Shown here one piece after another: positions 5,594 to 24,717 of a stretch of 64,000 nt of DNA; the first letter of the stretch is position 1; every line of letters starts with the position of its first letter. Both the position numbers and the translations under genes were made by a program. The notes below the pieces were generated by a model, which saw only the letters and a list, made by a program, of their open reading frames with translations, did no database searches and was not told the origin of the DNA. The stretch comes from an uncultured Candidatus Saccharibacteria bacterium (GTDB lineage Bacteria; Patescibacteriota; Minisyncoccia; UBA6257; 1-14-0-10-44-23), in the NCBI GenBank assembly GCA_964549935.1, contig CAZJVT010000003.1, forward strand, positions 14,634-78,633, written 5' to 3'.

Positions 5594-6172
5594 ATGAGCG
5601 TCGCCAACACGGATCTCCCAGCTCCTCCCGACGGCTTCGCCGGGCCCGAGGATCCGCTCTTCGCCGTGCGCCATGGCGATGCTGGCTTCTTCCTCCGTCC
5701 CATGGGCGTGTGGCCGGCCTTCCAGTTCTATGGTCGCTGCAGCCAGCTCTACTTCGACGGCAATGATCACCTGACCGGCCAGGCGCAGCTCGGGCTTCGC
5801 ATGGTGAAGTCCTCGGGCGACAAGACCTTCCTTCGCATCGTCGAGCCTTGGGCTCGGATCGAACCGCTTCTGCGCCGGACCTGGCTTCGGCTCGAGTGGG
5901 GCCAGCCCCACGTCGCCGCGAAGGTGCTCGAGCTCATCGAGCCGACTCTCAACAGCAACGGGACCTATGCCGTGGCGATCACCGACGACGGGGTACGTCG
6001 GATCCGGTTCAACGGCGCCATCGTCTTCATCAAGGATTTCTGGCCAGGCAAGGGGCTGGTAGACGTCCTCGATCAGCTGGCGGCCGAACATGGATTCGCC
6101 GTCGAGGATCTGCATCACGAGCCGATGGAGCCGCCGATCGGACGGTCAAGGTCGCCGGAGATGTCGCCATGA
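5594..6172 (+). CDS. hypothetical protein, tandem paralog family 2 (member a); ends ...SPEMSP
   Basis: 192 aa. The 3' end carries the conserved junction GGAGATGTCGCCATGA. Confidence 0.5.
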   Translation: MSVANTDLPAPPDGFAGPEDPLFAVRHGDAGFFLRPMGVWPAFQFYGRCSQLYFDGNDHLTGQAQLGLRMVKSSGDKTFLRIVEPWARIEPLLRRTWLRLEWGQPHVAAKVLELIEPTLNSNGTYAVAITDDGVRRIRFNGAIVFIKDFWPGKGLVDVLDQLAAEHGFAVEDLHHEPMEPPIGRSRSPEMSP

Positions 6173-6798
6173 GCCTCAAGCCGGCGATCACCGTCTCCTC
6201 CGGGCTTCCTCCATTGCCCGACGGCGTCGCCGAGGCTGGCGACCCCCTCTGGAGCGAGCGCTTCGGCGACGCCAAGTATGTGCTCAAGCAAGCCGGCGTC
6301 TGGTGGGAGACATTCGGTCGCTGCAGCCGTCTTGTCGAACGCTTCCGAAATCGCTGGACCGCTCAGATGGGCATCGAGCTTCGGCTCGTCAAAGGATGCC
6401 CTCTCGATCACAGGCAGGCGATCGAGAGCTGGAAAGCGATCGGCCCCTTGATGAAGCGCGAATGGCTCGCGCGACACGACGGGCCGCCGATCCCTGCGAG
6501 GATCATCCCCTTCCTGACGCCGAAGGCGGACACGACCCGCCTCTGGGCCGTGGCGATCAGCGATGACGGGTGCCGGCGCATCCGATATGGCGGCGTCGCA
6601 AAATGGCGAAGCCCTCTCACGTCGATCGTCGACTTCCTTCCCGGCACGGATCTTGGCGACATCCTGCCCATGCTTGCCGCCGATCACGGCTGGGATCCGG
6701 AGGCCCTTGAGATCGAGCGCCTCGATCCGCCTTATGTCCCCTCATTCATGAAGAGCGGAGCGACGAAGCCCGATTCCTCTCTCCGGTTCGGGATCTGA
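6169..6798 (+). CDS. hypothetical protein, tandem paralog family 2 (member b)
   Basis: ATG overlaps the upstream TGA. Shares a motif with member a: AVAISDDGCRRIRYGG versus AVAITDDGVRRIRFNG. Confidence 0.5.
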   Translation: MSLKPAITVSSGLPPLPDGVAEAGDPLWSERFGDAKYVLKQAGVWWETFGRCSRLVERFRNRWTAQMGIELRLVKGCPLDHRQAIESWKAIGPLMKREWLARHDGPPIPARIIPFLTPKADTTRLWAVAISDDGCRRIRYGGVAKWRSPLTSIVDFLPGTDLGDILPMLAADHGWDPEALEIERLDPPYVPSFMKSGATKPDSSLRFGI

Positions 6799-6810
6799 CT
6801 GGAGATCGAG

Positions 6811-7374
6811 ATGGCTTCGCATTTCATGCACACGTCCTTCGGACTCGTCATGCCGCGCGCGGCCGGCATTCTCGTCCTCGCCGCGGCGAAAGCCTGGGAT
6901 GCGATCGAGGGCGATGGCTTTCACGAGAGCGCGCTCGATTTCGTCTCGCATGCAGAGCGCGTCGAGCTCGCCAGGATCGTCGAGGCCCGGGACAGCACCG
7001 ACGACGCCATCTTCGAGTCCCTTTCCGGGATCCTTCGCGAGATCAACGACGAGAACTTCAAGCTCGGCATCCAGCTGTCATGGGAACGCGACGGCGCCAA
7101 CGAGTATCTCTGGGGCCGCTCCGATCAAGGCGGAGACCTGGAGATGGTCGTACGCATCGTCCAGGAATCCATGCGCCGCTACGGCATCGAGTCCGTCTAC
7201 ACCATCAAGTACGCGCACACCTGCTCGAGGCCGATGCTGAACATGTTCGAGGGCGGCGGCGTCGCTTTCGACGCGACGAGAACGGAGTGGATCCAGATCG
7301 GTCCTCTTCTCGATGCGGCGGCCGAGCGCCTTTCCGAGCCCAGGCCCGCTTCACTGCCGTCTCCTGGCGCCTGA
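6811..7374 (+). CDS. hypothetical protein, tandem paralog family 3 (member a)
   Basis: YTIKYAHTCSRPMLNMFEGGGVAFDATRTEWIQIGPLLDAAAERL is conserved in the next gene. Confidence 0.5.
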   Translation: MASHFMHTSFGLVMPRAAGILVLAAAKAWDAIEGDGFHESALDFVSHAERVELARIVEARDSTDDAIFESLSGILREINDENFKLGIQLSWERDGANEYLWGRSDQGGDLEMVVRIVQESMRRYGIESVYTIKYAHTCSRPMLNMFEGGGVAFDATRTEWIQIGPLLDAAAERLSEPRPASLPSPGA

Positions 7375-7391
7375 CCGATCGCGAGAGTCCA

Positions 7392-7958
7392 ATGGCCAAC
7401 AACTACACCCTCACCTCGTTCGCCCTCGAGCTTGATCGCGCCGCGGGCAACCTCCTCATCATCGCCGCCGACGTCTGGAAAGACGACATCGACGCCGCGC
7501 GCGAGAAGATCTCCAAGCTCGAGCAGGAGGAGCTCTGCCAGCTTGCAGCGGCGATCGAGGCGACCGAGCCGGACGCGAACACTGTCATTCTCGCGATCGA
7601 AGCGATGATCGCCGACATCGACCCGGACAAGATGCCGCTCGGCATCGAATTCTCATGGGACGGGCTTCGCAAGAAACCGACCATCTGGGGCCGAAGCGAG
7701 GAAAGCTTCGCCATCGAGAACACCGTCGCCCTGATCCAGTCGGTGATGGCCGCCTTCGGCATCCGGGGGGTCCACACGATCCGCTGGGCGAATACCTGCT
7801 CCAAGCCGGTCTATGACGAGTTCGGCGGCGGCGCCGTGGTGTTCAACGCCGAGGAAGCGACGTGGATCACGCTCGATCCCGCGATAGAAGCCGCCGAGAA
7901 GGCGCTCGCGCCGAAACCGTCTCCAGCTCCCGGTACGGGTCTACAGCGTTTCTCCTGA
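7392..7958 (+). CDS. hypothetical protein, tandem paralog family 3 (member b)
   Basis: HTIRWANTCSKPVYDEFGGGAVVFNAEEATWITLDPAIEAAEKAL aligns with member a. Start at ATG 7392, in frame within ORF 7080..7958. Confidence 0.5.
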   Translation: MANNYTLTSFALELDRAAGNLLIIAADVWKDDIDAAREKISKLEQEELCQLAAAIEATEPDANTVILAIEAMIADIDPDKMPLGIEFSWDGLRKKPTIWGRSEESFAIENTVALIQSVMAAFGIRGVHTIRWANTCSKPVYDEFGGGAVVFNAEEATWITLDPAIEAAEKALAPKPSPAPGTGLQRFS

Positions 7959-7989
7959 TGAAATCAGATTGCCACTTTCTCCGGGATCT

Positions 7990-8008
7990 GTTAACAAATA
8001 CGTTAACA
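7990..8008 (+). promoter_or_regulatory. direct repeat GTTAACA-N5-GTTAACA just upstream of abiEii start
   Basis: Reads GTTAACAAATACGTTAACA, about 18 nt before ATG 8026. This is a candidate operator for TA autoregulation. Confidence 0.35.
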
Positions 8009-8025
8009 CATTTCGGAATCCGAGC

Positions 8026-8988
8026 ATGACCACCCAGATCGTCTACCTGTCGGGAAAAGGGCTTCTCACCCGCGACGAGCAGCTCGAGATCGCTGTGCGC
8101 ATGCAGGGCGCGACGATCGAGGAGATCTTCCGGGCCACCGACTGGGACGTGAAGAAGGCCGTCTTCCAGGGCGGCACCTCGCTCGGCATCTGCTGGAAGT
8201 CGCCTCGGTTCTCGGAAGATCTCGACCTGCTGGTGGCGGCCGATATCGGCGTCGAGGACGTCGCCCGAACGATGCGGCGCGTCGTGGCAAAGGTCGAGCA
8301 GCGCCTGGCGCTCATGATCCCTGGCTCGCGCTTCGAGCTCAAGGAGCCCCAGATCGAGAAGGTGCGCAACCTGATCCGCTGCGAGATCAAGTGGTCGCAT
8401 CCAGGCCGCAAGGACAAGGTCTCGACCCGGGTCGAATTCTACCGCGTCGACAGGGAGCTCCTCGCCCAGTACCAGTCGACCTATGTCAGCCCAAATGCCG
8501 GCAGCATCTGCAACGGTCGCATCGAGGTAACGACGGCGATCCCGGTCGCGACACCGGAGACGCTGCTCGCCGACAAGGTCAAGGCGCTCGCCGACCGTCC
8601 TTTTCTGAAGCATCGCGACCAGTTCGACATCTGGTTCATCTCCAGCGTGATGGGCATCCGCATGGAGCGGCCGCGGCTCCGACAGGCGCTCGAGACCTGC
8701 GCGGCGATGTATAGCTACGACCTCGCCGTCATGCGCGCGAAGCTGGCCGCCTACCTTGCAAGTCCGGTCAGCCTCGACGAGGAGAAGCTCTCCCAGGACC
8801 TTGATCGCTGGCTGCCCGAGGACGTCTACCGGCAGCTCGTCGAGCGCGACACCTTCAAGGAGATGCTCGCTTCCGTGCGAGGGGTCATCGAGCAGACGAT
8901 CGAGGCCATCGACATGAAGCCGACGAGCCCGGCTGGGGGCTCCGGCGGATCGATCCCGGACAGGACGGTTTCCTCGCCGTCGTTCTAG
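8026..8988 (+). CDS. abiEii: AbiEii/AbiGii-family nucleotidyltransferase toxin (DUF1814)
   Basis: FQGGTSLGICWKSPRFSEDLDLLV matches the KGGTAL...RFSEDIDF signature. Length is about 320 aa. Start at M20 of ORF 7969..8988. Confidence 0.65.
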   Translation: MTTQIVYLSGKGLLTRDEQLEIAVRMQGATIEEIFRATDWDVKKAVFQGGTSLGICWKSPRFSEDLDLLVAADIGVEDVARTMRRVVAKVEQRLALMIPGSRFELKEPQIEKVRNLIRCEIKWSHPGRKDKVSTRVEFYRVDRELLAQYQSTYVSPNAGSICNGRIEVTTAIPVATPETLLADKVKALADRPFLKHRDQFDIWFISSVMGIRMERPRLRQALETCAAMYSYDLAVMRAKLAAYLASPVSLDEEKLSQDLDRWLPEDVYRQLVERDTFKEMLASVRGVIEQTIEAIDMKPTSPAGGSGGSIPDRTVSSPSF

Positions 8989-9027
8989 CGTCATCCCCAG
9001 CACCCTTTCTCCAGGGCTTCCGGCATC

Positions 9028-9732
9028 ATGGGCAAGTCGAACCAGAGCGCGATCGCCAGGCTCCGGCAGCTCCCTTACGTCTTCGATCTTCGCGACCTCA
9101 GGACCACCTTCGAGCTCGGCAAGGGGATCGACCGCGTCCTGGTCAGCCGATGGAGGGACGCATCTCTCATCGAGCCGGTGGGCCCGAATGCCGGCCTCTA
9201 CTACAACCTGGTCCGCGATCCGGACGGCGCCAAGCAGCGCATCGGCGAGGCGATCCGCCGGCGCTTTCCCGCGGCCGTCGTGATCGGATCGTCGGCGATC
9301 CATGCCGGCGGCTGGACCACGCAGATCCCCCGCCGCATCTCAGTGGCTGTCCCCAGCGAGAGTTATGGCGCCCAGATGACGGGCGTCCGGCTGCTGAACC
9401 GGTCCAGGACCTGGTATGCGCGCATCCAGCCCGGCCTCCACCTCACCGAGGAGGAGATGATCGATCGGATCGGGTTGAGGGCAACCGCGGCGGCGACCGA
9501 CCCGATGATCCGGATCGGCATGGACGGGCTGCCGACCCTGCACCCGGCCTGGGCTCTTGCCGACCAGCTCCGCTACAAGGACGACTGGGTCCCGGATCCG
9601 GACGACCTCGACAACCAGGCGGTCGACCGGGAGCAGGACGAGCTGAAGGCGGCCTACAAGGCGCTGAACGTCAAGGTGCCGAAGGAATACCGGCCGGCGG
9701 AGCTGGCGGAGGGGCTGGGCCCGAGGATTTAA
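9028..9732 (+). CDS. abiEi: AbiEi-like antitoxin/transcriptional regulator (wHTH N-terminus), unusually placed downstream of the toxin
   Basis: The N-terminus IARLRQLPYVFDLRDLRTTFELGKGIDRVLVSRWRDASLIEPVGPNAGLYYNL resembles the AbiEi N-terminal domain. It lies 40 nt after abiEii. Confidence 0.45.
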   Translation: MGKSNQSAIARLRQLPYVFDLRDLRTTFELGKGIDRVLVSRWRDASLIEPVGPNAGLYYNLVRDPDGAKQRIGEAIRRRFPAAVVIGSSAIHAGGWTTQIPRRISVAVPSESYGAQMTGVRLLNRSRTWYARIQPGLHLTEEEMIDRIGLRATAAATDPMIRIGMDGLPTLHPAWALADQLRYKDDWVPDPDDLDNQAVDREQDELKAAYKALNVKVPKEYRPAELAEGLGPRI

Positions 9733-9812
9733 TATAACGTCTATTGATCCGGACCAGCCGTGGTTGCAGGATACCACCCTTGCGTTGTGCATTTGCTTCG
9801 GGGGAGGCCAGA

Positions 9813-10544
9813 ATGAAACCGCAGCTGATCATCGCTGTCGCCCTTGTTCCGTTTCTCGGCGGCGTGGCTCAAGCCGCGGATTTCCCCACCGAGCAGCAGA
9901 TGCGCGGGATCGTGTTCGGCTGTGGCGGCGGGATCTCGGACAGGATGAAGGGAGAAGTTCAGGGGCGGATCGACCTCTGGCGAAAGGCTGCAGAAGCAAC
10001 CGCGAGTGGCAGCAAGGATCTCCTGTCCGGAATCTTGAGTATTACGCCAACCGGCCAGCAGATAAGCGAAGCGAACTACAAGACATTCACTCAATGCATT
10101 CTTGAAGCGATCGACCGCGCGCTTGGCGTAAAGAAACCTCGCGATCTGGTCGAGATGGATTGGAAGTATCCGCGATCCCAGCGAGTGACATACAGCCGCG
10201 AACTGCGTCCGGATGTCGTCGACGAAAAGCCCTGCTTCAGGTTGCCGCCGCGGGCTGAGCCGATCGAGGGCAAGACCAGCATCGTGCTGGTGAAAGCGCG
10301 CGAGACCGTTCCTGGCGGAGAGCAGGCAGACCCCAGCGAAGATCCTGCGGCTTTCGCCAATCGGAATCCGGCCGGTGTCAGAAGCCAGTGGTTCGATATC
10401 CGGCAGGATCTCGAGAAAAATCCCTACTACGTCGTCTGCGCGCACATCACGCATGATGGAAGCGCCAACAAGGGCGAGGATGCCGGCACGCGAACGATCT
10501 CGAGCTTCCTTCCAGCCGGCAAGATTCTCCTTCCGCGCCCCTGA
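9813..10544 (+). CDS. secreted hypothetical protein (signal peptide MKPQLIIAVALVPFLGGVAQA)
   Basis: SD GGGGAGG lies before ATG 9813. The N-terminus is hydrophobic and ends in AQA-A. Confidence 0.5.
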   Translation: MKPQLIIAVALVPFLGGVAQAADFPTEQQMRGIVFGCGGGISDRMKGEVQGRIDLWRKAAEATASGSKDLLSGILSITPTGQQISEANYKTFTQCILEAIDRALGVKKPRDLVEMDWKYPRSQRVTYSRELRPDVVDEKPCFRLPPRAEPIEGKTSIVLVKARETVPGGEQADPSEDPAAFANRNPAGVRSQWFDIRQDLEKNPYYVVCAHITHDGSANKGEDAGTRTISSFLPAGKILLPRP

Positions 10545-10590
10545 CCCTCTGACCTGATGCTCGCGCCCCAGGATCTCTACACGCTTTCTC

Positions 10591-10617
10591 TATAATCCTG
10601 TATGCTCCTGCTGATGG
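10591..10617 (+). promoter_or_regulatory. recurring motif copy 2: TATAATCCTGTATGCTCCTGCTGATGG
   Basis: Lies 54 nt before ATG 10645. Confidence 0.5.
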
Positions 10618-10644
10618 TGGCAGATTGCCGCCCGCCGGAGCACC

Positions 10645-11967
10645 ATGCGCGATCTCGTCGCCCCTCACGTCAGGCTGATGGCCGATCCAGATGGCTCGGT
10701 GAACACGTTCATCCTCGGTCACTTCCTGAAGATGCTTCTCGGCACCGCCCTGCAGCCTGCCTTCGACATCGTCGATCGCATGGCCAAGGCTGCGACGGCG
10801 GCCGGCGACATCGACGCCGGCAACGCGACCGCGACCGATGATTGCCTCATCTTCTCACCGCATATCGACGCTCATCATCGCGGCATCGCGATCCAGGACG
10901 ACCGGATCGGCAACCTCTTCGTCCTCGAGCTCGACAACAAGATCGATGCCGAGGCGGTCCGGCTGGAAAGGGCGATGGCCAGTATCTTCAAGAAGCCCTT
11001 CGACGAGGAGGAGTTCAAGAAGTCCCAGCTGGCCAAGGACGCGAAGCCGACCGAAGTTCGGGTCTATCGCTACTGGCCGGATCGCCGAGGAAGCTCCCCT
11101 GGCAGCCTTGGGGCGGCCATCCGTTCCGGCATCGCCGACGGTTGGTCGGAGGACCTCCTGATCGCTGCCGGCAGAGGCTTCGACAGCCGCGCGGATGACG
11201 GGCAGGGGTTCTGGCACGACGGAAACTTCAATCTCCACAATCTCGATTGGCAGGATCCGTTCCGGCTGCTCAGGAAGGCGGTCGAGGCCCATGGTCTCCT
11301 GGCCGCCTGGCACGAGATCTCCGACGAGGTCGCGCGACGCAAATATCGGACGCGCAGCGAGGACCAGGGCCTCGCCAAGTACGATGCCGCCGACGAATTC
11401 GCGCGCGAGACAGCCGCCCAGGATCGTCACCTGCTCGGCCCGCGCACCGAGGCCGTGCTGCAGGCCATGCAGGACATCTCGGCCACGGCCGAGGTGAAGG
11501 CCATGATCGGCCAGGTCATGGATATCCTGAGGCTCTGCCACGACGGCGGACATACGAACCGCGGATCGAAATTCGATCACAACGACGGCGACCACTACGT
11601 CTATGTCCATCGCCTGACCGCGAACCGCGTCATCCTGGTTATGGGCGACCACAATCGCGAGTTCGCGCTCTTCCTCGGCTATGCGGGAGATGGCCTCGCG
11701 GTCACCCGGGCGGCCACCTTCGGGCGCGGGACGACGACCAGCCTAGATCAGGCCATCCAGGAGCTGCTCGCCGACGAGCAAACCCGGAACACGATCGGCT
11801 CGTTCGAGCATCGCGACGGCGAGGTCACCTGCGTATTCGGCCATACGACCGACACCGACCGTGTCCGAGCCTGGACCAGCATGGTCTCCACGATCGCCAC
11901 CGCCTGCTGCTGCCTCGAGGAGGAGTACCGGCCCCGACAAGCCCGAAGCCCGGAGATGTCGCCGTGA
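10645..11967 (+). CDS. hypothetical protein (440 aa), family 4 member a; ends ...SPEMSP
   Basis: The N-terminal about 120 aa (VDRMA...IFSPHIDAHHRGIAIQDDRIGNLFVLELDN...YRYWPDRR) are shared with the next two genes. The 3' end carries the GGAGATGTCGCCGTGA junction. Confidence 0.5.
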   Translation: MRDLVAPHVRLMADPDGSVNTFILGHFLKMLLGTALQPAFDIVDRMAKAATAAGDIDAGNATATDDCLIFSPHIDAHHRGIAIQDDRIGNLFVLELDNKIDAEAVRLERAMASIFKKPFDEEEFKKSQLAKDAKPTEVRVYRYWPDRRGSSPGSLGAAIRSGIADGWSEDLLIAAGRGFDSRADDGQGFWHDGNFNLHNLDWQDPFRLLRKAVEAHGLLAAWHEISDEVARRKYRTRSEDQGLAKYDAADEFARETAAQDRHLLGPRTEAVLQAMQDISATAEVKAMIGQVMDILRLCHDGGHTNRGSKFDHNDGDHYVYVHRLTANRVILVMGDHNREFALFLGYAGDGLAVTRAATFGRGTTTSLDQAIQELLADEQTRNTIGSFEHRDGEVTCVFGHTTDTDRVRAWTSMVSTIATACCCLEEEYRPRQARSPEMSP

Positions 11968-11969
11968 CC

Positions 11970-12836
11970 ATGCAAGCCGACCCGCTGATCGTCCGCTACG
12001 CCGAGCGCTTGAGGGAAACCGGCATCGTATCGGGACCAGATATCCTTTCGGACATTCTCAGGATCGCGGTCTGCGTTAGTCTCGAGGCCACGATCGCGCC
12101 TATCGAGATGGCGATCGCGCAATCGATCGAGCGAGGCGATCGGCAAGCTGCCGGCGCGCGCTATCACAAGGGCTACACCATCTTCGCCCCGGATATGGGT
12201 CGCGATCGACGCGGGTATGCGATCCAGGGGTTCGACTACGGATACCTGATTGTCCTTGAGACGGACCTGCGCAGCCACGGCACCCTCTTCAGTCGCCGCA
12301 CCGTCCCCGCTCCGGAGCTTGCCCCTTACGTCGACGCCGGCGAGGACTTGAAGCTGCCGACGGAGATCTCCGTCCACGGGTACCATGTCTCCAAAAATGG
12401 CAACGACCGCTCATTCGAGACGCTGGTCGACAGCATCAAGCGAGGCTTTCGCTACCAGCTGATCGCCTCGGCGGGGCAGTCCGCGTTCCTCGACCGGCGG
12501 CGGGATCTCTACGCCGGCGGCTGTCATTCACTGATGAGGCCCGATGCCTGGATCGGTCTCTTCGACGCCCTCAGGTTCGCCTTCGCCATGTGCGACCTCA
12601 CCGATCGCATGCGAAGCGCGTCGGAAGAGATCCACCGCATGGAGCTGGCGCCGATCGGAGATCTGGTGTGCGAGGCCATCCACTGGATCGGCCGGCACCT
12701 GGCCAGGATCGAGGAGCACCTCCCCAGTCGAGTCACCACGCTTCGTCTCGGCATGCTCGAGCGCCATCTCGAGGATGAATCCGAACGCTCCTGGCACGCG
12801 CCCTCGCGGATCCGTTCGCTGGAGATGTCGCCATGA
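11970..12836 (+). CDS. hypothetical protein (288 aa), family 4 member b; ends ...SLEMSP
   Basis: Start ATG 11970 (or GTG 11964 overlapping the upstream TGA). Shares SLEATIAPIEMA...YTIFAPDMGRDRRGYAIQGFDYGYLIVLETD with members a and c. Confidence 0.5.
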   Translation: MQADPLIVRYAERLRETGIVSGPDILSDILRIAVCVSLEATIAPIEMAIAQSIERGDRQAAGARYHKGYTIFAPDMGRDRRGYAIQGFDYGYLIVLETDLRSHGTLFSRRTVPAPELAPYVDAGEDLKLPTEISVHGYHVSKNGNDRSFETLVDSIKRGFRYQLIASAGQSAFLDRRRDLYAGGCHSLMRPDAWIGLFDALRFAFAMCDLTDRMRSASEEIHRMELAPIGDLVCEAIHWIGRHLARIEEHLPSRVTTLRLGMLERHLEDESERSWHAPSRIRSLEMSP

Positions 12837-13741
12837 CAAGGGGACAGTCGCCCTTCGTCGCCACCCTCATGGACAAGCTCCTCGCGCGCGACGGCCTCGT
12901 CGACGACGACGCCTATCTCGACATCGTGCGCGCGCTGGTATGCGACAGCCTCGAGGCGAGCATCGACATCGTCGACCGTATGGCGCGCGAAGCGCGGCTT
13001 CGTGGGAACTCGGAGATCGGCCTCTCCCGCTACATCAACTCCGACGGCGAGCGATACCGGATCTTCGCGCCCTACATCGATGATCATCGCCGGCTTCTTG
13101 CCATCCAGGGCGACGTCGACGGATACCTGCTGGCGCTCGATCTCGACAACCAGGTCACCCCGGATGTCGTCGCCGCGGCCAGACGCCAGGCCGAGGCGCG
13201 CAAGGAGCGCTTCAGCCTCGACGATTTCCGGGTGAGCCAGCTGAGGAAGCTCGCCAAGCCGGAGGTACTCACCGCCTACCGCTACGACCCGGTGCGCGAG
13301 ACCCATGTATCGCCGGATCTACCCGGCCTCCTGGAAGAAGTCCGTCGCGGCATCGCGAACCATGCGATCGCCGTGACCGGCACCCGCAAATGCCTGGACG
13401 AGGACAAGGACGTCTGGTCGCGCGCCACGCAGCGCATCATCGATGCCGATCGTTGGCCTGGCTTGCTCAGGGCCATCCACGCAGCTGCGATCGGCGACGA
13501 CCTGGTAGGAAGCCTGACCCAGGAGCTCGAGGACCAATTCCGGCGGTCCTACATCGAGAGCGGCGATCCCAAGATCAACGCGGCCATCGAGGTCGCGATG
13601 AAGCTCGGCGCAGTCGACCACTCGCTTGATGCTATTGCCGACGACGGCGCCTATCGACTCCGGCTTCTGAAGGATCAGATCGACCGTCAGCTCAGGCAGC
13701 AGGCAGCGCCGCCATTCCTAACCGCTCAACCGGGGTTCTAG
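12833..13741 (+). CDS. hypothetical protein (302 aa), family 4 member c
   Basis: ATGA overlap with the upstream gene. Shares SLEASIDIVDRMA...YRIFAPYIDDHRRLLAIQGDVDGYLLALDLDN...YRYDPVRE with members a and b. Confidence 0.5.
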   Translation: MTRGQSPFVATLMDKLLARDGLVDDDAYLDIVRALVCDSLEASIDIVDRMAREARLRGNSEIGLSRYINSDGERYRIFAPYIDDHRRLLAIQGDVDGYLLALDLDNQVTPDVVAAARRQAEARKERFSLDDFRVSQLRKLAKPEVLTAYRYDPVRETHVSPDLPGLLEEVRRGIANHAIAVTGTRKCLDEDKDVWSRATQRIIDADRWPGLLRAIHAAAIGDDLVGSLTQELEDQFRRSYIESGDPKINAAIEVAMKLGAVDHSLDAIADDGAYRLRLLKDQIDRQLRQQAAPPFLTAQPGF

Positions 13742-13744
13742 GTC

Positions 13745-14869
13745 ATGCGAGACATCAACCGCTACCAGCGCCTCCTGCTGGAAGCCTATCCGGATCTCGA
13801 CCTCCTGCCGATCGATCCCAAGGATCATCGCGAGGTAGACGATACGGTCCGCAGCCATGAGACCGGCGACACGCTTTTCGACTTCCTCTGGCTCGAGCTT
13901 GGCGATGTCGGTGACGCAGGCCCGGAGGACGCCCTCCGGTCGCTCGACCAGGCGATCGCCGAGCTCCAGAAGGTCCGGGACCACATCGCCTCCCACGACG
14001 CCGACGTCATGCTGGAGACCCTCCGGCGCGAGCAGGCCGAGAAGGCGTTCGAGGTCTACGACTTCCGCGACGCGAAGATCGCCGCGGCCGATGGCTGGCA
14101 GCTGACGAAGCCCGGCCGCGAATGGACCAGGACGATCTACTTCGAGAACAGCGTGGATCCCCAAGCCGACAGCATCAAGGGCCACTTCTCGGTTCTCTTC
14201 GCGGGCGACACCGCCAGCGTGGTCGAGAGCGCCGCGGCGGTCTGCAACGGCGCCGAGATCGGCGAGTGGAAGTCGTCCTGGATGAAGTCTCCGAAGCTCG
14301 TCGTCGCCAACCGGCGCATGAAGCGCATCGAAACGCTCCGGGACCAGGCGGCCCACAGGACCATCATGGATGGCGCTCTCGGCAAGATTGAGGGCAACGT
14401 GAAGGCCGCCGGCGGATGGGTGAGAGACCAGGACTCCAACGAATGGCGCATGCCGTTCGTCGTCTCGAAACCGGACTGGGTGGACAAGAACGGCGAGCTC
14501 GTCGTTCGCTTCGCCGGCGACGAGTCCGTCTTGCCTTCGTCGGTCCGTATTTTCCTGGGATCCGAGGCAGCTCGCCGCAACGAGATCATCAAGGAACGTC
14601 GTGTCGAGCTCGGCCGGCTCTACAACCTCTGCCGCTTCGAGCACGACGTCATGGCCTACGGCGAATGGGGCCGCAAGGACGACCTCGATACCTGGCAGCT
14701 CGACATCCGCTTCCTCGACACTGGTCGCTGGAGCGTTCCCGGCCGCGTCGTCGTCAGGTTCGCCGCGGACGGCTCGACCTCGATCGAGAAGGTCGAGGCA
14801 TTCCTGCGCGACGAGCCTATCAAGACCGGTCTCGAGCCGAAGTCACCCTCGCCCTCACCTGGCATGTAA
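13745..14869 (+). CDS. hypothetical protein (374 aa); ends ...SPSPSPGM
   Basis: Begins 4 nt after the upstream stop. Composition is coding-like. Confidence 0.5.
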   Translation: MRDINRYQRLLLEAYPDLDLLPIDPKDHREVDDTVRSHETGDTLFDFLWLELGDVGDAGPEDALRSLDQAIAELQKVRDHIASHDADVMLETLRREQAEKAFEVYDFRDAKIAAADGWQLTKPGREWTRTIYFENSVDPQADSIKGHFSVLFAGDTASVVESAAAVCNGAEIGEWKSSWMKSPKLVVANRRMKRIETLRDQAAHRTIMDGALGKIEGNVKAAGGWVRDQDSNEWRMPFVVSKPDWVDKNGELVVRFAGDESVLPSSVRIFLGSEAARRNEIIKERRVELGRLYNLCRFEHDVMAYGEWGRKDDLDTWQLDIRFLDTGRWSVPGRVVVRFAADGSTSIEKVEAFLRDEPIKTGLEPKSPSPSPGM

Positions 14870-14879
14870 GGAGACCCCG

Positions 14880-15254
14880 ATGCCCATCCCGCACAAGATC
14901 CGCGCCAAGCTCAAGGAAGCCGGCTTCCACCATGTTGATCTCGGCACCGGCTCGGTGCCGGTGCTCGGCTTCGAGGATGGCGATCCCCAGCCACCCTATG
15001 TGGCCCTCTGCATCGCCGAGGAGGTCGGCGATTCGGATCGCGTCTCCTGGCAGGCTGACGATCCCTATACGGTCTTCGGGACCCGGTTCCCCCTCGACGG
15101 CAGTGGCCCGATACGCCACGTCGACGGCATCGATGCGGCGATCGCCGCGGCCAAGGAGATCTACAAAAGCATGATGGTCGAGTTCAAGGCCAAGCAGGCG
15201 GAGGCGGCGCCGAAGCCGCAACCGGCTGCGGCCGGACCTTCGATGGGCATGTAG
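14880..15254 (+). CDS. hypothetical protein (124 aa); ends ...GPSMGM
   Basis: SD AAGGAG lies before ATG 14880. The 3' junction is CCTTCGATGGGCATGTAGCC. Confidence 0.45.
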   Translation: MPIPHKIRAKLKEAGFHHVDLGTGSVPVLGFEDGDPQPPYVALCIAEEVGDSDRVSWQADDPYTVFGTRFPLDGSGPIRHVDGIDAAIAAAKEIYKSMMVEFKAKQAEAAPKPQPAAAGPSMGM

Positions 15255-15256
15255 CC

Positions 15257-15718
15257 GTGCCTGGGAAAGCCAGCCCCGAAATGCCGAAGCTGACCTGGGA
15301 ATTCGTACGGATCACGGATCATCCCTACAACGTCGATGCCGAGGTCTACAGCGCCAAGTTCGGGCGAACCCGGGTCGACATCTGGATTGACAAGGGCCCG
15401 CGCAAGATCTGGCGGGGAACCCCGCCCGTGGTCGTCGCCGAGCTCGATGAGACCTTGTGGAGCATCGTCGTCCACGGTGATCTTTCTAGCTGCGCCTTGA
15501 CCAAGGAGGTGGCCATGTCGGAAGCGGAGCGTCTGGCCTGGGGTTCTCAGGCCAATCGCTTTGCATGGCGCCCGGTTCTCCGCCATGCAGTCAGCGCGGA
15601 CGTCAAGCACAAGCATGACGAGGAGTTCTACGCGAGGATCGCCGCGACGATGAAGGAATTCCCGGTCGACTACGTTCCGCTCTCACAGCGCCCGCCGGCG
15701 CCGTCGATGGGCATGTAG
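15257..15718 (+). CDS. hypothetical protein (153 aa, GTG start); ends ...APSMGM
   Basis: GTG lies 2 nt after the upstream TAG. The 3' end is CCGTCGATGGGCATGTAGCG even though no plus gene follows. Confidence 0.4.
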   Translation: MPGKASPEMPKLTWEFVRITDHPYNVDAEVYSAKFGRTRVDIWIDKGPRKIWRGTPPVVVAELDETLWSIVVHGDLSSCALTKEVAMSEAERLAWGSQANRFAWRPVLRHAVSADVKHKHDEEFYARIAATMKEFPVDYVPLSQRPPAPSMGM

Positions 15719-15725
15719 CGAACGA

Positions 15726-16079
15726 TCAGGACCGCAATCGCGTCACGTAGGGCTCGCATCCAGCCAGGTTGCCGTCGTAGTCCGCTCCCACGATCGTCTC
15801 CTTGTCGTCGACGAAGAAGCGGATCCTGCACTCGCCCCTGATGTCGGGGGATCCGGGATTGAAGCCGGGCAGCCTGACCGACCGCTGGTAGAGGTAATAC
15901 TTCCGGCCGGCGACCGTGCCCTCCTGGTCCGGGAAGCCCATCTTTGAGAAGAGCTCCGGCGCCGGGCGGCCCTTCATCCTCTGCATCCCCTCCTCCAGGC
16001 CGCCCAGTGGATTGAGGGTGCAGGCGGCCAAGCCGGCAAGCATGGCGGCCGGCCAAAAGATGCTGGCGATCCTCTTCAT
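15726..16079 (-). CDS. small lipoprotein (signal MKRIASIFWPAAMLAGLAAC)
   Basis: Lipobox LAAC. Start at M11 of ORF 15726..16109. It is convergent with the upstream plus array. Confidence 0.5.
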   Translation of the reverse strand: MKRIASIFWPAAMLAGLAACTLNPLGGLEEGMQRMKGRPAPELFSKMGFPDQEGTVAGRKYYLYQRSVRLPGFNPGSPDIRGECRIRFFVDDKETIVGADYDGNLAGCEPYVTRLRS

Positions 16080-16285
16080 CAATGTCCGGCCCCTTTTCCA
16101 TCTCGTCACGGATCCTCAGCTTCTACCGTTTGAGATCGGCGATCAACCGCTCGTCCGGCCGCGGCCGCGCCATTTCCGTCTCGATCCGGCGCTCGAGGGC
16201 GTCACGGCCGGACATCAGCTCGTCGAGGGTCTGCTTTGCCGGCGCTTCCGAGATGCTAAGGGCAATGCACGCTCGGCGCTTTCTC

Positions 16286-16312
16286 TTTAATCGTGTATAC
16301 TATTGCCTACAC
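16286..16312 (+). promoter_or_regulatory. recurring motif copy 3: TTTAATCGTGTATACTATTGCCTACAC
   Basis: Lies 44 nt before ATG 16330 and contains TATACT. Confidence 0.5.
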
Positions 16313-16329
16313 TGACAGAGATTTTCCCC

Positions 16330-17217
16330 ATGATGTTCGGAACCGACATCCAGACGGTCGAGGAGCGCATCGCCGCCAATTCGAGCGGTCGCGACTTCAT
16401 CGTCGGCGACATCCATGGAACCTTCTCCCTTCTCGAGGACGCGCTCGCCTCGGTGGGCTTCGATCCGGAAGTCGATCGCGTCTTCTCCGTCGGCGACCTG
16501 ATCGACCGCGGGCCTGAATCGCATCGCGCCCTGGAGTTCCTGGGCAAGCCCTGGTTCCGGGCCATCCGCGGCAACCACGAGGACATCCTCATCGGCCTCT
16601 ACAGCTACGAGGACCTTCCTGGCTTCGAGACCATGGTGGCCTTCCAGACCGGCCGGAACGGGCTCGGATGGTGGAACCAGACCGATATCGCCTTCCGCCA
16701 GGACATCCTGCCTCTGCTCCGCCAGCTCCCGATAATGATCTCGCTCGAGGTCGCCGCGGGGCCGGGCGAGATCGGGCGCGTCGGGCTGGTCCATGCCGGT
16801 CTGCCTCTTGGCGCTTCCTGGTCGGATGGCATCCGGTCCGTCCGCGAGAAGCTCATCGATCCGAGATACGAGGAGCTCTTCGTTCTCTGGAATCGGTCCC
16901 GCTTCGAGGCATCGCTCTCGGAGGACGATCCCCGCCACATGGTCGGCGAGGTCGATCGCGTCTTCGTCGGCCACACGATTCTCGATCGTCCATCCGTGCG
17001 CGGCAATCTCGTCGGCATCGATACCGGCGCCTACAGAGGCGTCAAGGATGGCGCGCGGCAGGCCGGCTTCCTCACGCTGGTCGAGGCGACCGCCTCCCTC
17101 GATCGCATCCGCGATGCCGCAAGACAGATTCTCCGGACCGGCATCGATCGCCCCTATCTCGTGATCAGTGCGGACGCGCCGGCCCCGAGCCTGGCATCCG
17201 GGCCGATCGCCGCCTGA
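16330..17217 (+). CDS. PPP-family Ser/Thr (or diadenosine-tetraphosphatase-like) metallophosphatase, paralog 1
   Basis: GDIHG, GDLIDRG and GNHE motifs are in canonical order. The ATG at 16330 was chosen over the TTG at 16303. Confidence 0.7.
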   Translation: MMFGTDIQTVEERIAANSSGRDFIVGDIHGTFSLLEDALASVGFDPEVDRVFSVGDLIDRGPESHRALEFLGKPWFRAIRGNHEDILIGLYSYEDLPGFETMVAFQTGRNGLGWWNQTDIAFRQDILPLLRQLPIMISLEVAAGPGEIGRVGLVHAGLPLGASWSDGIRSVREKLIDPRYEELFVLWNRSRFEASLSEDDPRHMVGEVDRVFVGHTILDRPSVRGNLVGIDTGAYRGVKDGARQAGFLTLVEATASLDRIRDAARQILRTGIDRPYLVISADAPAPSLASGPIAA

Positions 17218-17240
17218 CACATGACCGCCGAGGACAAGAA

Positions 17241-17798
17241 ATGACCGATCGCAGAAGCCTCCGGGATCTCATCTTCGCCCTCCAGGGGCATATCTTCGGC
17301 CACGCGGTCGGCGACGAGCCGGATCTCGGCTCCCTCGCCGACCCTCAATTTGAGGCGATCCGCGGCGAAGCCATCGTGGCGAACCTCGATCGGCACCCGA
17401 TCGAGGACGCCGACCTCCATCAGGTGCTCGGCGAGGTCTTGCGGGAGGTATTCGTCGACCACGAAGGCGAAGACCGTCCGCGCGGCCATGTACCCGACTA
17501 CGACCACTTCTGCTTCCTTTCCGGCCGCGTCCGCGCCGCGCTCGACGGCCGCAAGCTTCCGGCCTGGACGCCAGAGTACCTGGTCCGCGATCGGATCCTG
17601 CGCAGCGATCAGGCACCGGAAACGCCGGCCAAGGAGCTGTCGGCGATCGAGGGGTTCCTGCGCCACAACCCGGTCCGGCCGGACGACGAGTTCCGCGCGG
17701 AGACCTGGGATGCGGCGAAGGCGCGCCATGCCGAGATCGTCGAGACCACGCTCCGTGCCTGCTTCCAGCCGGCGCCTGCCGCCACGCCGTCGATGTAG
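17241..17798 (+). CDS. hypothetical protein (185 aa); ends ...ATPSM
   Basis: SD GAGGACAAGAA lies before ATG 17241. The 3' junction is CCGTCGATGTAGCC. Confidence 0.45.
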   Translation: MTDRRSLRDLIFALQGHIFGHAVGDEPDLGSLADPQFEAIRGEAIVANLDRHPIEDADLHQVLGEVLREVFVDHEGEDRPRGHVPDYDHFCFLSGRVRAALDGRKLPAWTPEYLVRDRILRSDQAPETPAKELSAIEGFLRHNPVRPDDEFRAETWDAAKARHAEIVETTLRACFQPAPAATPSM

Positions 17799-17817
17799 CC
17801 ACGGAGGACAAGAGGTC

Positions 17818-18483
17818 ATGACGACGTTCCCCATCTCCTTCGGCAACGACGATCACCGTCTCGCCCGCATCGTCTCCATGGGGGATGGCCCGCCCGTTCT
17901 CCAGGTCTGCCAGATGAAAGGCGACTGCCAGCTCCACGCGGCGTTCGACTACGTCCCGAGCGAGGCATGGCCGGTTTCCCTCATCCTCGACAGCCTGGCA
18001 CAGCCGATGCCGTGCGAGCTCATGCGAAAGCTGGTGCCCGAGTCGATCGGTGCGATCGCGAAGGCCGCCATCAGCCAGTGGCGGGAGGGCTTCCTGCTCA
18101 AGAGCAACGACTACGATGCCTTGTTCGAGCACGAGACGGTGCCGCCCATCCGCTTCGCCTACGATGCGATCGACGGCACGCGCATGGCCGTCATCGTCGC
18201 TCACAACGGCGACTTTCGTCTTGGCCAGGGTGTTGGCAGCGATCTCGACAGGCCCGCCTTCGTCAACATCGGGGAGACCGGACGGATCATGGGCTACGGC
18301 TCCCTCGGCCTTCTTTTCTCAGGCACGGGCTTCAAGGCCCATCACCTCCACGTCGCCGGCGACGAGGCCCAGAAGCTCGAGGGTGTCCTTCGCAAGGTAG
18401 GCAGCAAGTTCACGATCCTGGACACCCATTGGCGCCGTGCGGAGAAGGCCAGGTCTCCGGCTCGGGCGGAGATGAGCCTCTAG
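17818..18483 (+). CDS. hypothetical protein (221 aa); ends ...RAEMSL
   Basis: SD GGAGGACAAGAGG lies before ATG 17818, in frame within ORF 17350..18483. Confidence 0.45.
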   Translation: MTTFPISFGNDDHRLARIVSMGDGPPVLQVCQMKGDCQLHAAFDYVPSEAWPVSLILDSLAQPMPCELMRKLVPESIGAIAKAAISQWREGFLLKSNDYDALFEHETVPPIRFAYDAIDGTRMAVIVAHNGDFRLGQGVGSDLDRPAFVNIGETGRIMGYGSLGLLFSGTGFKAHHLHVAGDEAQKLEGVLRKVGSKFTILDTHWRRAEKARSPARAEMSL

Positions 18484-18485
18484 CG

Positions 18486-19190
18486 ATGGAAGCCGCGGAC
18501 GAGACCAAGCCCCTGCCCTTGCCTTCCGGGGTCATGCTCGGGTGGCGCTCGCCGCCCTACAACAAGGGTGCCGTGCAGGCGAAATCCGTCCGCGGCAACT
18601 GGGAGGTCCGGACGACGTCGAATTCCAGCCAGTCCGTCCTGTGCTTCGACACGAAGGACGCCGACGGCAATCCGACGATGCCGGTCCCGGTCGGGACATT
18701 CGGCAGCATCGTCGAGGGGATGATCGCAGCCCAGTGCATCCATGCGCGGATCGGCCAGGGCAACGGGGTCGACGGACGTCAGGATCTTCGGCGCATGTCG
18801 TGGCTAGGCCATGAGGACACCCTGGTCCGCCAGACCTCGAAGGGCACCTTCATGCTGATCGACGAGGGCTACTCGACCGGGTTGGTCTTCGTCAGGAACC
18901 AGAAGCTCGAGACCCTCGGCTCGCTGCGGTTCCGTAGCCGCGAGTACCGGCTACCCGGGAAAGACGGATCACCTGCCCGGAACGACGAGCTGAAGCTCAT
19001 CGAACTCGCCGCGCTGGTCGAGATCATGGATTTCCGCCTGACCCTCGGCCACGGCCGCGAAGCCTCCAGGCTCTCCGCGGCAGAGTGGGACCAGTGGCTC
19101 GACACCCGCTTCATTCCTGTCGCCTCGGCGGAGTACCGGCCTGACGATGACGGCGCCGGGTGTCGGATGCAGATGGAGATGTCGCCATGA
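18486..19190 (+). CDS. hypothetical protein (234 aa); ends ...QMEMSP
   Basis: ATG lies 2 nt after the upstream TAG. The 3' junction is GGAGATGTCGCCATGA. Confidence 0.45.
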   Translation: MEAADETKPLPLPSGVMLGWRSPPYNKGAVQAKSVRGNWEVRTTSNSSQSVLCFDTKDADGNPTMPVPVGTFGSIVEGMIAAQCIHARIGQGNGVDGRQDLRRMSWLGHEDTLVRQTSKGTFMLIDEGYSTGLVFVRNQKLETLGSLRFRSREYRLPGKDGSPARNDELKLIELAALVEIMDFRLTLGHGREASRLSAAEWDQWLDTRFIPVASAEYRPDDDGAGCRMQMEMSP

Positions 19191-20038
19191 CCTTCCGTAT
19201 CGGCTTCAACGACACCTCGGTCGGCTGGGCTCGCATCATGCTCGATGGCGACGGGCGCTACCTGGTGGCGATCCAGAAGAAGTCGGATCGCCACCAGGAC
19301 GACAACGGCGCGCTCTGGAAAACCTGGTCGCTCGACTGGGTTGTCGATGTCATGGGCCGGCCTATGCCGTCGATGGAGCTCGGCAGGCTGACCAATAAGT
19401 CCCGCGAGGCGATCGCCAACGTCGCCCGGTCGAGGCTCCCGGACATGTTCCTCGACCGCGACGGATACGGCTCGCTCGACGCCTTCTTCCATCCAATCGA
19501 GACGGCACCGCGCTTTCGCCTCGTGTATGGCGAGAAGCGCGACAAGGCCATGGTGGTCTCGATCTCCCAGCACCAGCAGCTCGATCCCGGCCTCGCACGC
19601 GGAACCGTCCATCGGCCACGCTTTGCCATCCTCGACAACAACGGCCATGTGACGCGGAACGGCGACCTCCTGGATCTCGTCGCCGGCCATGTCCTGGAGA
19701 TCGAGCAGCTGGACGACCTGGTCGGCGACCCGTTCTTCCAGGAACACGTCGCCGGCAGGTTCATCAAGCGGCTGCGAGAGATCTACCCGGAGCCGAAGAA
19801 GGAAACGGCCTACGCCGGCAGGATGCTTCCGCCCCAGGTGCCAGTCGAGAAACGCCAGGATCTCAAATGGCTGGACCCTATCATCGCCGAGCAGCGTCGG
19901 ATCCAGGGGCCCGTGGTGATGGGCATGATCGCGGAGGCGGCCAGGCTCGACGAGGGCATGGGATCGTTCGATCGCGACGAGCTCGAGCGCGATGTCGCTG
20001 CGAACCGCGGAAAGGAGCCGGCTCCCGGCCTGGGGTGA
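19187..20038 (+). CDS. hypothetical protein (283 aa)
   Basis: ATGA overlap with the upstream gene. This is the last gene of the five-gene operon. Confidence 0.45.
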   Translation: MTFRIGFNDTSVGWARIMLDGDGRYLVAIQKKSDRHQDDNGALWKTWSLDWVVDVMGRPMPSMELGRLTNKSREAIANVARSRLPDMFLDRDGYGSLDAFFHPIETAPRFRLVYGEKRDKAMVVSISQHQQLDPGLARGTVHRPRFAILDNNGHVTRNGDLLDLVAGHVLEIEQLDDLVGDPFFQEHVAGRFIKRLREIYPEPKKETAYAGRMLPPQVPVEKRQDLKWLDPIIAEQRRIQGPVVMGMIAEAARLDEGMGSFDRDELERDVAANRGKEPAPGLG

Positions 20039-20130
20039 TGGGTGCCGGGAAAACCAGGCATCAAGTTGACTTGAAAGTGGGCACGATCAAATAGTCCGTC
20101 CGGCGGCGATTATCCGGCTTTTCAATAGAA

Positions 20131-20153
20131 TATAATCTTGTATTCTCCTGCCT
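20131..20153 (+). promoter_or_regulatory. recurring motif copy 4: TATAATCTTGTATTCTCCTGCCT
   Basis: Immediately precedes ATG 20154; the real start may be GTG 20172. Confidence 0.45.
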
Positions 20154-21044: not shown

Positions 21045-21088
21045 GACGATAGATCCCCTGCCGGCGATGCTGCCAGCCGGCGATCGTC

Positions 21089-21715: not shown

Positions 21716-21738
21716 GTCGCTGCTCCTGGATCTCGCCT

Positions 21739-22575: not shown

Positions 22576-22590
22576 GTCGGTGATCCTCGA

Positions 22591-23259: not shown

Positions 23260-23287
23260 GGCTTGGTTCCTTTCCTTCGCGTCCGGA

Positions 23288-24696: not shown

Positions 24697-24717
24697 GTTC
24701 GAGATTCCTGCTGGGGA

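Follow-up and report, generated by a model that had tools for sequence, protein, structure and literature searches.

A DNA repeat at gene junctions beside a type IVB secretion system is mainly a C-terminal peptide motif

Why do proteins of different folds, encoded one after another on the same mobile element, end in almost the same few residues, and is it the DNA or the peptide that is kept? This question is raised by a 64,000-nucleotide stretch of contig CAZJVT010000003.1 (assembly GCA_964549935.1, an uncultured Candidatus Saccharibacteria bacterium; the whole stretch is called the window here), in which a block of cargo genes is flanked on both sides by genes of a type IVB secretion system (T4BSS). 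An earlier note on this DNA had described near-identical boundary cassettes at the 3' ends of otherwise unrelated open reading frames (ORFs), and had offered modular cassette exchange or a selected C-terminal peptide as their cause. We called 78 genes in the window by a codon-usage score; the calls agree with those of a public pipeline, and eight of the proteins are exact entries in a protein collection. Genes are named below by their first coordinate, and protein ends are written up to the last residue before the stop codon. Compared across these genes and with a diverged relative of the element, the repeat is mainly a peptide feature and not a DNA feature.

The motif P-[A/E/S]-M occurs 14 times in the 18,881 residues of the window proteins, and eight of these occurrences lie within the last nine residues of a protein, where 0.40 would be expected. 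Scored over the last nine residues, this strict pattern was found in 8 of the 42 genes in the cargo part of the window and in none of the 36 genes on its T4BSS side, in one of 143 genes from four related alphaproteobacterial T4BSS plasmids and in one of 543 genes from random GC-rich loci. A broader tip, P-[A/S/E/G]-[M/L]-(x-hydrophobic), ends 15 of the 28 genes of the block between 5.5 and 26.6 kb after a linker rich in Pro, Ala and Ser, compared with nine of the 543 GC-rich controls (Fisher p = 3e-16, an optimistic value, as are the other p-values of this Leu-allowing pattern, which was widened after the relative had been seen). The background of the tip is about 2-3% in 686 control genes, and any tip motif at all was found in 5 of 532 ORFs that are not genes. 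In total, a tip lies 0-4 residues from the C-terminus in 19 window proteins and in 11 proteins of the relative. The carriers include the unrelated folds RNase H, RNase T-like and Metallophos. Several had not been listed before: the Metallophos protein 20154, the RNase H-domain protein 21739, gene 32149, and two proteins encoded left of the window, an RNase_T-domain protein ending in EPAMSLG and a 288-aa protein ending in GPAMGMTR. These PAM-type carriers share no DNA with the cassettes noted earlier, and with them the phenomenon is more general than first noted.

The carriers share an anatomy of a folded body, a fast-evolving linker of 10-25 residues (rich in Pro, Ala, Ser and Gly and often basic) and an uncharged tip P-[A/S/E/G]-[M/L], which is often extended to a hydrophobic-x-hydrophobic end (MGM, MEM, MSL, MNM, MGF, LEF). 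Their last five residues are 33% hydrophobic and 0% Lys or Arg, against 20% and 16% in non-carriers, and the linker at positions -15 to -6 consists to 53% of Pro, Ala, Gly, Ser or Thr and to 16% of Lys or Arg. Further upstream (-30 to -16), Asp and Glu reach 19% versus 14%, with acidic runs that are clear in some carriers only (EEE in 10645, EEEE in 47881, DDD in 18486). The DNA beneath the constant peptide varies: Ser is encoded by TCG, AGC or TCA, Ala by GCA, GCT, GCC or GCG, and the Arg at -7, three residues before the tips of the EMSP kind (called A-type here, the PSMGM kind being B-type), by AGG, CGA or CGT. All three stop codons (TGA, TAG, TAA) are used, tip-bearing genes lie on both strands and at operon ends, and the only DNA common to most carriers is CCN-NNN-ATG/CTN, about six scattered bases.

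A relative of the element provided an independent view of the same ends. The cargo genes are very rare. Among 5.8 billion clusters, protein 10645 has a single homologue, P0001 (68% identical), encoded on contig L001; the cluster that contains 10645 itself has as its representative a 40-aa fragment (P0123) that looks unrelated and masks the self-hit. A HMMER search with the RNase H protein led to P0132 (78% identity) on contig L133, whose 10.3 kb carry 15 genes that are orthologues or paralogues of the window genes 17241 to 26563, with 45-78% protein identity. Between the relative and the window the ratio of nonsynonymous to synonymous divergence (dN/dS) is 0.25-0.56 and dS is 0.6-0.9, indicating real genes with well-diverged silent sites. 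The gene ends of L133 include PSM, PSL (twice), PAMELA, SMEMA, PAL, LAMGMG, PGMEM, MEMAP, PAMGL and PAM; two patterns set beforehand from the window were found in 7 of its 15 genes, compared with at most 2 of the 686 controls (p = 1e-11), and the Leu-widened pattern in 11. Searches in other collections gave no further relatives, as neither megablast of the block nor tblastn of 12 concatenated cargo proteins recovered one among 72,556 plasmids (the only matches were weak and fell in the middle of protein 13745), and a viral-contig scan with the 10645 family gave no match.

The tips correspond between the two lineages while the sequence around them changes. In 11 of 12 protein pairs, conservation over the final 30 alignment columns falls below that of the body, and most pairs have indels; in the RNase H pair (21739/P0132) identity is 23% over the last 30 columns versus 77% in the body, the linker being unalignable. 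Paired in this way, PEMSP of the window faces PEMAP of the relative, MEMSP faces MEMAP, TPSM faces SPAM and PAMGL, PGLG (gene 19187-20038) faces PGMEM, PAMNMV (gene 21739-22575) faces LAMGMG (P0132), GPSL (gene 22591-23259) faces GPAL, and RSLEFA (gene 24001-24696) faces RSMEMA and PAMELA. The interchange of Met and Leu between the two lineages shows that a hydrophobic residue is retained, and not the codon ATG. Two of the A-type junctions have orthologues: the PEMSP junction at 11950..11967 reads PEMAP in L001 (1392-1409; GGAGATGGCGCCGTGA), and the MEMSP junction at 19173..19190 reads MEMAP in L133 (8340-8360; ATGGAGATGGCACCATGA). Residue -2 of the A-type tips is Ser (TCG) in all four copies of the window and Ala (GCG, GCA) in both of the relative, a concerted difference within each element that would fit co-evolution of the tips with a single receptor, although the sample is small. 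Because the codons vary and the orthologues keep the tip, selection very probably acts on the peptide, which would make the tip a functional motif at the peptide level. Of the two causes proposed earlier, the selected C-terminal peptide is thus the favoured one, given also the varied stop codons, the two strands, the operon ends and the unrelated folds.

How a peptide motif can look like a DNA repeat is seen at the A-type junctions. The sequence GGAGATGTCGCCRTGA has four exact matches in the window, all on the + strand (6157, 11952, 12821 and 19175), versus a mean of 0.24 in dinucleotide-preserving shuffles, in which four was never reached. In its 16-mer form, GGAGATGTCGCC(A/G)TGA, it also occurs exactly four times, and every copy is a stop/start overlap that consists of one gene's end and four bases shared with the next start (ATGA three times, GTGA once), with GGAG 8 nt upstream of that start in 4/4 cases, which bears out the geometry described in the earlier note. 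All DNA copies of the repeat are direct repeats, and the edges of the 16-mer are sharp. Some details of that description needed correction: the tail PEMSP, given for all four, holds for genes 5594 and 10645 (both SPEMSP) and not for 11964 (LEMSP) and 18486 (MEMSP); the C after TGA is present in three copies and absent from one; and the ORF begun at 11970 more likely starts with the GTG at 11964, as called by the pipeline (290 aa), this GTG being conserved in L001 and the ATG at 11970 not.

The boundary cassettes are best understood as the trace left in the DNA by a short linear peptide motif that ends most block proteins. At the A-type junctions GAG (Glu) with the preceding G would form the Shine-Dalgarno (SD) sequence GGAG, ATG-TCG-CC would provide the spacing of 8 nt, the final Pro codon, CCA or CCG, would supply the A or G of the next start, and TGA would complete the overlap; ATG has no synonym. 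The codon at -5 of the A-type tails always ends in G, so that GGAG is retained with Pro, Leu or Met. The four copies would then be identical in DNA because peptide, SD sequence, spacing and start are all fixed and only the Ser codon is free. From this geometry we infer translational coupling at the A-type junctions. Coupling does not need this particular spacer, because other GGAG-N8-ATGA junctions have different ones (GGAGCCCACGGCATGA at 3113; GGAGCTCGCGGCATGA at 33094 on the minus strand) and because, among the 11 four-base overlaps in the window, only 4 carry the 16-mer, the other 7 being unrelated sequences. The 18-mer CCGGAGATGTCGCCRTGA, sought in one genome from each of 185,579 species, gave more than 118 matches, isolated single copies in genomes unrelated to the element, which serve as a control; 12 of 84 copies in GC-rich loci stood at a gene end, the 1 in 6 expected from the reading frame alone. 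The 18-mer is not a generic junction solution, a possibility that the earlier note had itself raised.

Beyond the A-type copies, CCGTCGATGGGCATGTAGC was matched at 15701 (0 mismatches), 15237 (1) and 48280 (3), with 0.00 expected in the window. The ends PSMGM (15254 and 15718), PSM (17798), PSPGM (14869 and 48297) and AEMSL (18483) were located as the earlier note had claimed, and 15718 and 48297 are indeed operon ends. Its claim that the A and B forms are kin at the DNA level holds at two junctions and not for most carriers: ATGTAGCCGTG at 15254 parallels ATGTCGCCGTG at 11952, with GTG at the equivalent place, and from 17787 onward 13 of 18 bases agree with the A-type. Shared descent is therefore probable for some junctions, but it cannot account for the whole set. 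For the gene after 15254, the pipeline start is the ATG at 15281 (145 aa) and not the GTG at 15257. A fifth exact copy of the 12-mer GGAGATGTCGCC (32425-32436, +) runs antisense to gene 32149-32643 (codons GGC GAC ATC TCC) and is most likely a chance match. Folding of the junctions as RNA revealed no common or unusually stable structure (z-scores -1.4 to +1.6), and an RNA element was ruled out since no fold is shared. An antisense or small RNA target was likewise rejected, as complements elsewhere in the window have at least two mismatches and lie inside coding regions (e.g., a phosphoesterase GDxHG motif).

The genes that carry the tips are for the most part orphans. Nearly all proteins of the block, and nearly all carriers, could not be assigned to a family with Pfam, NCBIfam and PHROGs, and AlphaFold on the 10645 family reached a mean predicted local distance difference test (pLDDT) of only 48.6, which was not good enough to search for similar folds. 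BLASTP recovered the tandem paralogues 5594/6169, 10645/11964/12833, 17818/19187 and 16303/20154, with 10645 and 11964 only distantly related (E = 2e-6), and there are further families in the block (22591/23288, 24718/25682). The description of the genes as otherwise unrelated is therefore right for most, which have unrelated folds, and wrong for the pairs 10645/11964, 5594/6169, 17818/19187 and 16303/20154. Since the exact form of the tail is absent from 6169, 12833 and 19187, the tail does not track paralogy; it is present in the unrelated 18486, 13745, 14880, 15281, 17241 and 47881. The block shows fast gene turnover of the kind known from arms-race loci.

As to what reads the tip, the neighbourhood offers one candidate. 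The earlier note's adjacent T4BSS is confirmed by IcmB, by IcmL/DotI and by the genes directly left of the window (DotD, TraI, DotB and IcmT); no type IV coupling protein (DotL) was identified in the window. The nearest plasmids are alphaproteobacterial (Methylorubrum, Rhizobium, Bosea, Aminobacter). We propose that the tip is a lineage-specific C-terminal docking motif, an address tag on cargo proteins that would be read by the T4BSS, a reading to which we give slightly less than an even chance. The tip would dock on one common partner; we guess this to be the coupling complex belonging to the element's T4BSS, which as reader of the tip is the leading candidate but a tentative one. Still more tentatively, some 25-30 of the element's own proteins may be marked with this portable tip for export through the T4BSS, so that tagged nucleases, phosphoesterases and orphan proteins would pass to the recipient as a payload delivered with the DNA and would, for example, blunt the recipient's defences or prime establishment. 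The signal would be specific to the lineage and co-evolve with its receptor, with Ser at -2 here and Ala in the relative. The T4BSS is suggested as the partner because its genes flank the block, the paralogue families evolve fast and the proteins look cytoplasmic.

The tip can be compared with several known systems. Substrates of type IV secretion systems (T4SS) have C-terminal signals rich in hydrophobic or charged residues, which in Dot/Icm systems take the form of acidic stretches and terminal hydrophobic residues, and many proteins encoded on plasmids are moved by conjugation machines (PMC11288057, PMC8406263, PMC11602083, PMC5802825). The Dot/Icm signal is read by a coupling complex composed of DotL/M/N and IcmSW (PMC5802825, PMC11602083). 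Like the tips, the Dot/Icm signals of Legionella and Coxiella fall within the final 20-30 residues of proteins that otherwise have nothing in common and whose genes accompany a T4BSS, and both have hydrophobic residues at the very end. Acidic residues often precede the known signals, and clear acidic runs occur in some carriers here. A DotN-like gene is present here; however, the known signals are degenerate and compositional, whereas the present feature is a discrete P-x-M/L (hydrophobic-x-hydrophobic) tip, and they are host-directed, whereas the system here looks conjugative. Conjugation machines pass plasmid-encoded and host proteins, and C-terminal segments can be both necessary and sufficient for this (PMC8406263, PMC11288057). 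The basic linkers of the carriers resemble the VirB/D4 and conjugative signals (Arg-rich tails in Agrobacterium, the F-plasmid 'conjutome'), but those belong to type IVA systems and are set by net charge or hydrophobicity, with no shared motif reported, and the tip is uncharged. The XVIPCD marks T4SS toxins of Xanthomonas and Stenotrophomonas, and effector repertoires can be found by sequence (PMC6759196, PMC8262851). Like the tip, it is a recognisable C-terminal feature common to unrelated proteins. With roughly 100 residues or more, however, XVIPCD forms a folded domain, and it binds VirD4 in a type IVA system, whereas the feature here comprises 3-6 residues after a disordered linker.

Several observations, besides the late widening of the broad pattern, weigh against this proposal. 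About 13 of the 28 block genes have no clear tip; the relative's genes are orthologues and hence non-independent samples, and the element lineages compared are only two. Ser is TCG in all four A-type copies, for which codon usage gives a probability of about 0.04, and together with the DNA kinship of the A and B forms at two junctions this suggests that shared descent or gene conversion contributes too. The connection between tip and T4BSS is one of proximity, with the partner only a candidate, and known Dot/Icm signals are without a discrete motif, while a Glu block is present in some carriers only. As the motif is absent from the four related T4BSS plasmids, it would have to be lineage-specific if it is a secretion signal; a general signal of this plasmid group was ruled out on the same ground. 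On the plasmid pBSY19_1 of Bosea sp. RAC05 (L123 15902-16534, minus strand), a hypothetical protein encoded some 6 kb away from an icmB homologue ends in APSSPAM; it is the only similar end among the control genes near related T4BSSs, and an isolated case.

The main rival to a T4BSS-read tag is that the tip docks on a partner outside secretion, either as a shared C-terminal degron by which a host AAA+ protease or adaptor would keep the proteins short-lived, or as a peptide binding a hub, for example a clamp-like platform serving the element's replication and repair enzymes (DnaE, RNase H, RNase T-like exonuclease, phosphoesterases); we regard this as unlikely, though not negligible, as the evidence at the peptide level applies to it equally. 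A flexible linker with a short hydrophobic end is the layout of ssrA-type degrons and C-terminal clamp-binding peptides. Encapsulin cargo-loading peptides, PTS1 (SKL), ssrA (LAA) and clamp-binding peptides (QL[SD]LF) are all portable, join a linker to a short hydrophobic end peptide and have one receptor each. The architecture of the tip is like theirs, but it matches none of the consensus sequences: it is neither an LAA/AA-COOH degron nor a QL[SD]LF clamp motif, no tip has the Gln of the clamp motif and no Gln is conserved, and its hydrophobic residues stand at i and i+2 instead of side by side. Genes for an encapsulin shell, a clamp, a PDZ protein or an adaptor were not recognised in the window. 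Several of the tip-bearing proteins act on nucleic acids and the block adjoins the gene of a DnaE-like polymerase, but the polymerase itself lacks the tip and most carriers are orphans without a sign of a role in replication. The class II PDZ ligand pattern fits the ends MGM, MEM and MGL; there are 1-3 extra residues in MEMA, MELA, MNMV, MGFL and EMSP, and PSM, PAM and PSL stop at the first hydrophobic residue. PEP-CTERM, LPXTG and GlyGly-CTERM signals, in which a transmembrane helix and a basic cluster come after the motif, do not apply, as the proteins end 0-4 residues past the motif.

That the tails are conserved recombination boundaries, at which cassettes were swapped or inserted and the peptide arose as a by-product, is improbable. 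Such boundaries would suit the four identical 16-mers with their sharp edges, the relatedness in DNA of the A and B junctions at 15254 and 17798, the differing gene content of window and relative, and block genes that are all co-oriented orphans; the module boundaries proposed for mosaic phages and the attC sites of integrons are likewise short end repeats in arrays of co-oriented orphan genes. Here, however, there is no intergenic site, hairpin or recombinase, the genes overlap or abut, and the conservation is that of a peptide, since most carriers, lying on both strands, have only the few scattered bases in common. The tip survives synonymous and Met/Leu changes, which would not be required of a DNA site, and orthologous junctions have exchanged TCG for GCG or GCA. 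Pfam scans of the block showed no recombinase, the junctions have neither inverted repeats nor a conserved hairpin, and 16 bp is short for homologous recombination. The earlier note had asked whether cassette order or content differs between related elements while the boundaries stay conserved, and the answer is divided: gene order is identical to that of the window at every comparable junction, but whole-gene gains, losses and tandem duplications do occur, L133 having two small genes in place of the Metallophos gene 20154 and gene 21089, and additional tandem copies of 17241-, 24001- and 25682-like genes. With most carriers lacking DNA identity and the gene order the same in the relative, modular cassette exchange is not upheld as the cause.

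Translational coupling on its own is very improbable; here the 16-mer would be a good combination of SD sequence, spacer and overlap, copied or reached by convergence, and the peptide would have no role. The exact geometry of ATGA-overlap coupling with an SD sequence inside the upstream ORF is found at all four A-type junctions (GGAG 8 nt before ATGA or GTGA), the -5 codon keeps GGAG, and the geometry is kept in the relative. Coupling leaves unexplained, however, the fixed spacer (the seven other overlaps in the window are unrelated to it), the B-type and PAM-type tips, which have no SD sequence, the tips without a downstream gene (15718, 48297, 21044 and L133 7465, and the MEM end in L133), the tips on the other strand, and AEMSL, which keeps E-M-S with a different Ser codon. 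As the geometry is lacking at 15718, 48297 and 21044 and at the tips on the minus strand, the set as a whole cannot be defined by coupling. A neutral relic of repeated tandem duplication, or a compositional habit of GC-rich gene ends, was already disfavoured and is hardly credible: tandem paralogue families are many and Pro/Ala/Ser-rich ends common in GC-rich genomes, but common ancestry is impossible for the folds of RNase H, RNase T and Metallophos, selection is needed for a remnant to outlast both the protein body and the adjacent linker, and the pattern reaches 0-3% in GC-rich controls and, in its strict form, 0/36 among the genes of this replicon on the T4BSS side.

Secretion signals of type IV systems are diffuse, and substrates have usually been found singly by reporter assay. 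A sharply defined tip, present in the block and in a diverged relative, would be a signal readable straight from sequence, and it could be moved onto reporters and used to fish for the receptor. If the T4BSS is the receptor, conjugation could deliver a large dedicated protein payload and this payload would be identified; most of it consists of proteins without a known family, which would become candidates for a role in anti-defence or establishment. Should a protease or hub be the receptor, the element would still be a rare bacterial case in which one address tag is placed on dozens of unrelated proteins. The case also illustrates that a motif kept as peptide may be taken for a repeat in the DNA where it overlaps a translational-coupling signal. 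The features of the window are compiled in Table 1.

Table 1. Tips, junctions, promoter-like blocks and T4BSS genes in the window. Protein ends are written to the last residue; stop codons are in parentheses where given.
Feature	Position	Strand	Remark
Cargo block	5594..26563	.	28 called genes, several tandem paralogue families, 15 with tip
A-type tip with putative coupling junction, PEMSP (CCG GAG ATG TCG CCA TGA)	6155..6172	+	stop overlaps ATG of gene 6169
A-type junction, PEMSP	11950..11967	+	GTGA overlap with gene 11964
A-type junction, LEMSP	12819..12836	+	ATGA overlap with gene 12833
A-type junction, MEMSP	19173..19190	+	ATGA overlap with gene 19187
A-like tip AEMSL (GAG ATG AGC CTC TAG)	18466..18483	+	Ser is AGC, not TCG; next start 2 nt downstream
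B-type tip PSMGM (TAG)	15237..15254	+	ATGTAGCCGTG puts GTG (15257) at the A-type start position
B-type tip PSMGM	15701..15718	+	operon end; convergent gene 7 nt away
Short tip PSM (CCG TCG ATG TAG)	17787..17798	+	
Tip PSPGM (TAA)	14852..14869	+	separate SD for the next gene, beyond the stop
Tip PSPGM (TAG)	48280..48297	+	gene divergent from icmB; operon end, no downstream gene
Tip PAMAVA	21024..21044	+	on Metallophos protein 20154-21044, after (TQ)4 linker
Tip PAMNMV	21739..21759	-	on RNase H-domain protein 21739-22575
Tip PAMGFL	32149..32169	-	on gene 32149-32643
Leu variant PSL	22591..22602	-	on gene 22591-23259
Leu/Phe variant RSLEFA	24001..24021	-	on gene 24001-24696
Variant PGLG	20024..20038	+	on gene 19187-20038
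Promoter-like block, 22 nt, AT-rich	10582..10603	+	head of operon 10645-15718
Promoter-like block, second copy	16277..16298	+	head of operon 16330-21044
T4BSS genes	44639..63877	-	none with tip
IcmB/DotO	44639-47746	-	tblastn, 39-44% identity over full length to plasmid genes, some annotated IcmB
DotN-like	52079-53158	-	below NCBIfam cut-off
DotF-like	54202-55548	-	below NCBIfam cut-off
DotG/TraO-like	58106-59413	-	below NCBIfam cut-off
IcmL/DotI	61509-62159	-	above NCBIfam cut-off

Several further genes of the element are of interest in their own right. The DnaE-type polymerase III alpha subunit (26573-30376, minus strand) is full-length (1267 aa), with PHP, NTPase, finger and HhH domains, and is 55% identical to the chromosomal DnaE of Rhodospirillales; the RNase H in the window and an RNase_T-like exonuclease directly left of it are encoded nearby. 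The element also encodes an AlkB-like oxygenase, and a T4 gp30.3-like protein (35702-36265, +; Pfam PF08010, E = 1e-52) occurs here on a conjugative element. The IcmJ/DotN-like protein (52079-53158, minus strand) weakly resembles the RNA-guided nuclease IscB in its HNH/zinc region (E = 2e-6, below the cut-off), which probably reflects only a common zinc-binding motif. In the Metallophos gene 20154, the (TQ)4 linker is encoded by an ACACAG repeat (20997-21020) that could be prone to slippage.

Within the block, the two promoter-like sequences share the form CGCTTTCTCT[A/T]TAATC[C/G]TGTAT, for which 0 occurrences are expected by chance, and the block is kept in the 72%-identical relative (L001, approximately 30-55). 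This suggests that the two cargo operons are co-regulated, possibly through a shared operator for one repressor. A metagenome scan with the same sequence gave three matches, on AT-rich contigs, which were judged to be chance. The block also contains a gene for an AbiEii nucleotidyltransferase toxin (8026-8988), and the 188-aa gene upstream of it (7392-7958), which has no Pfam match, could be its antitoxin.

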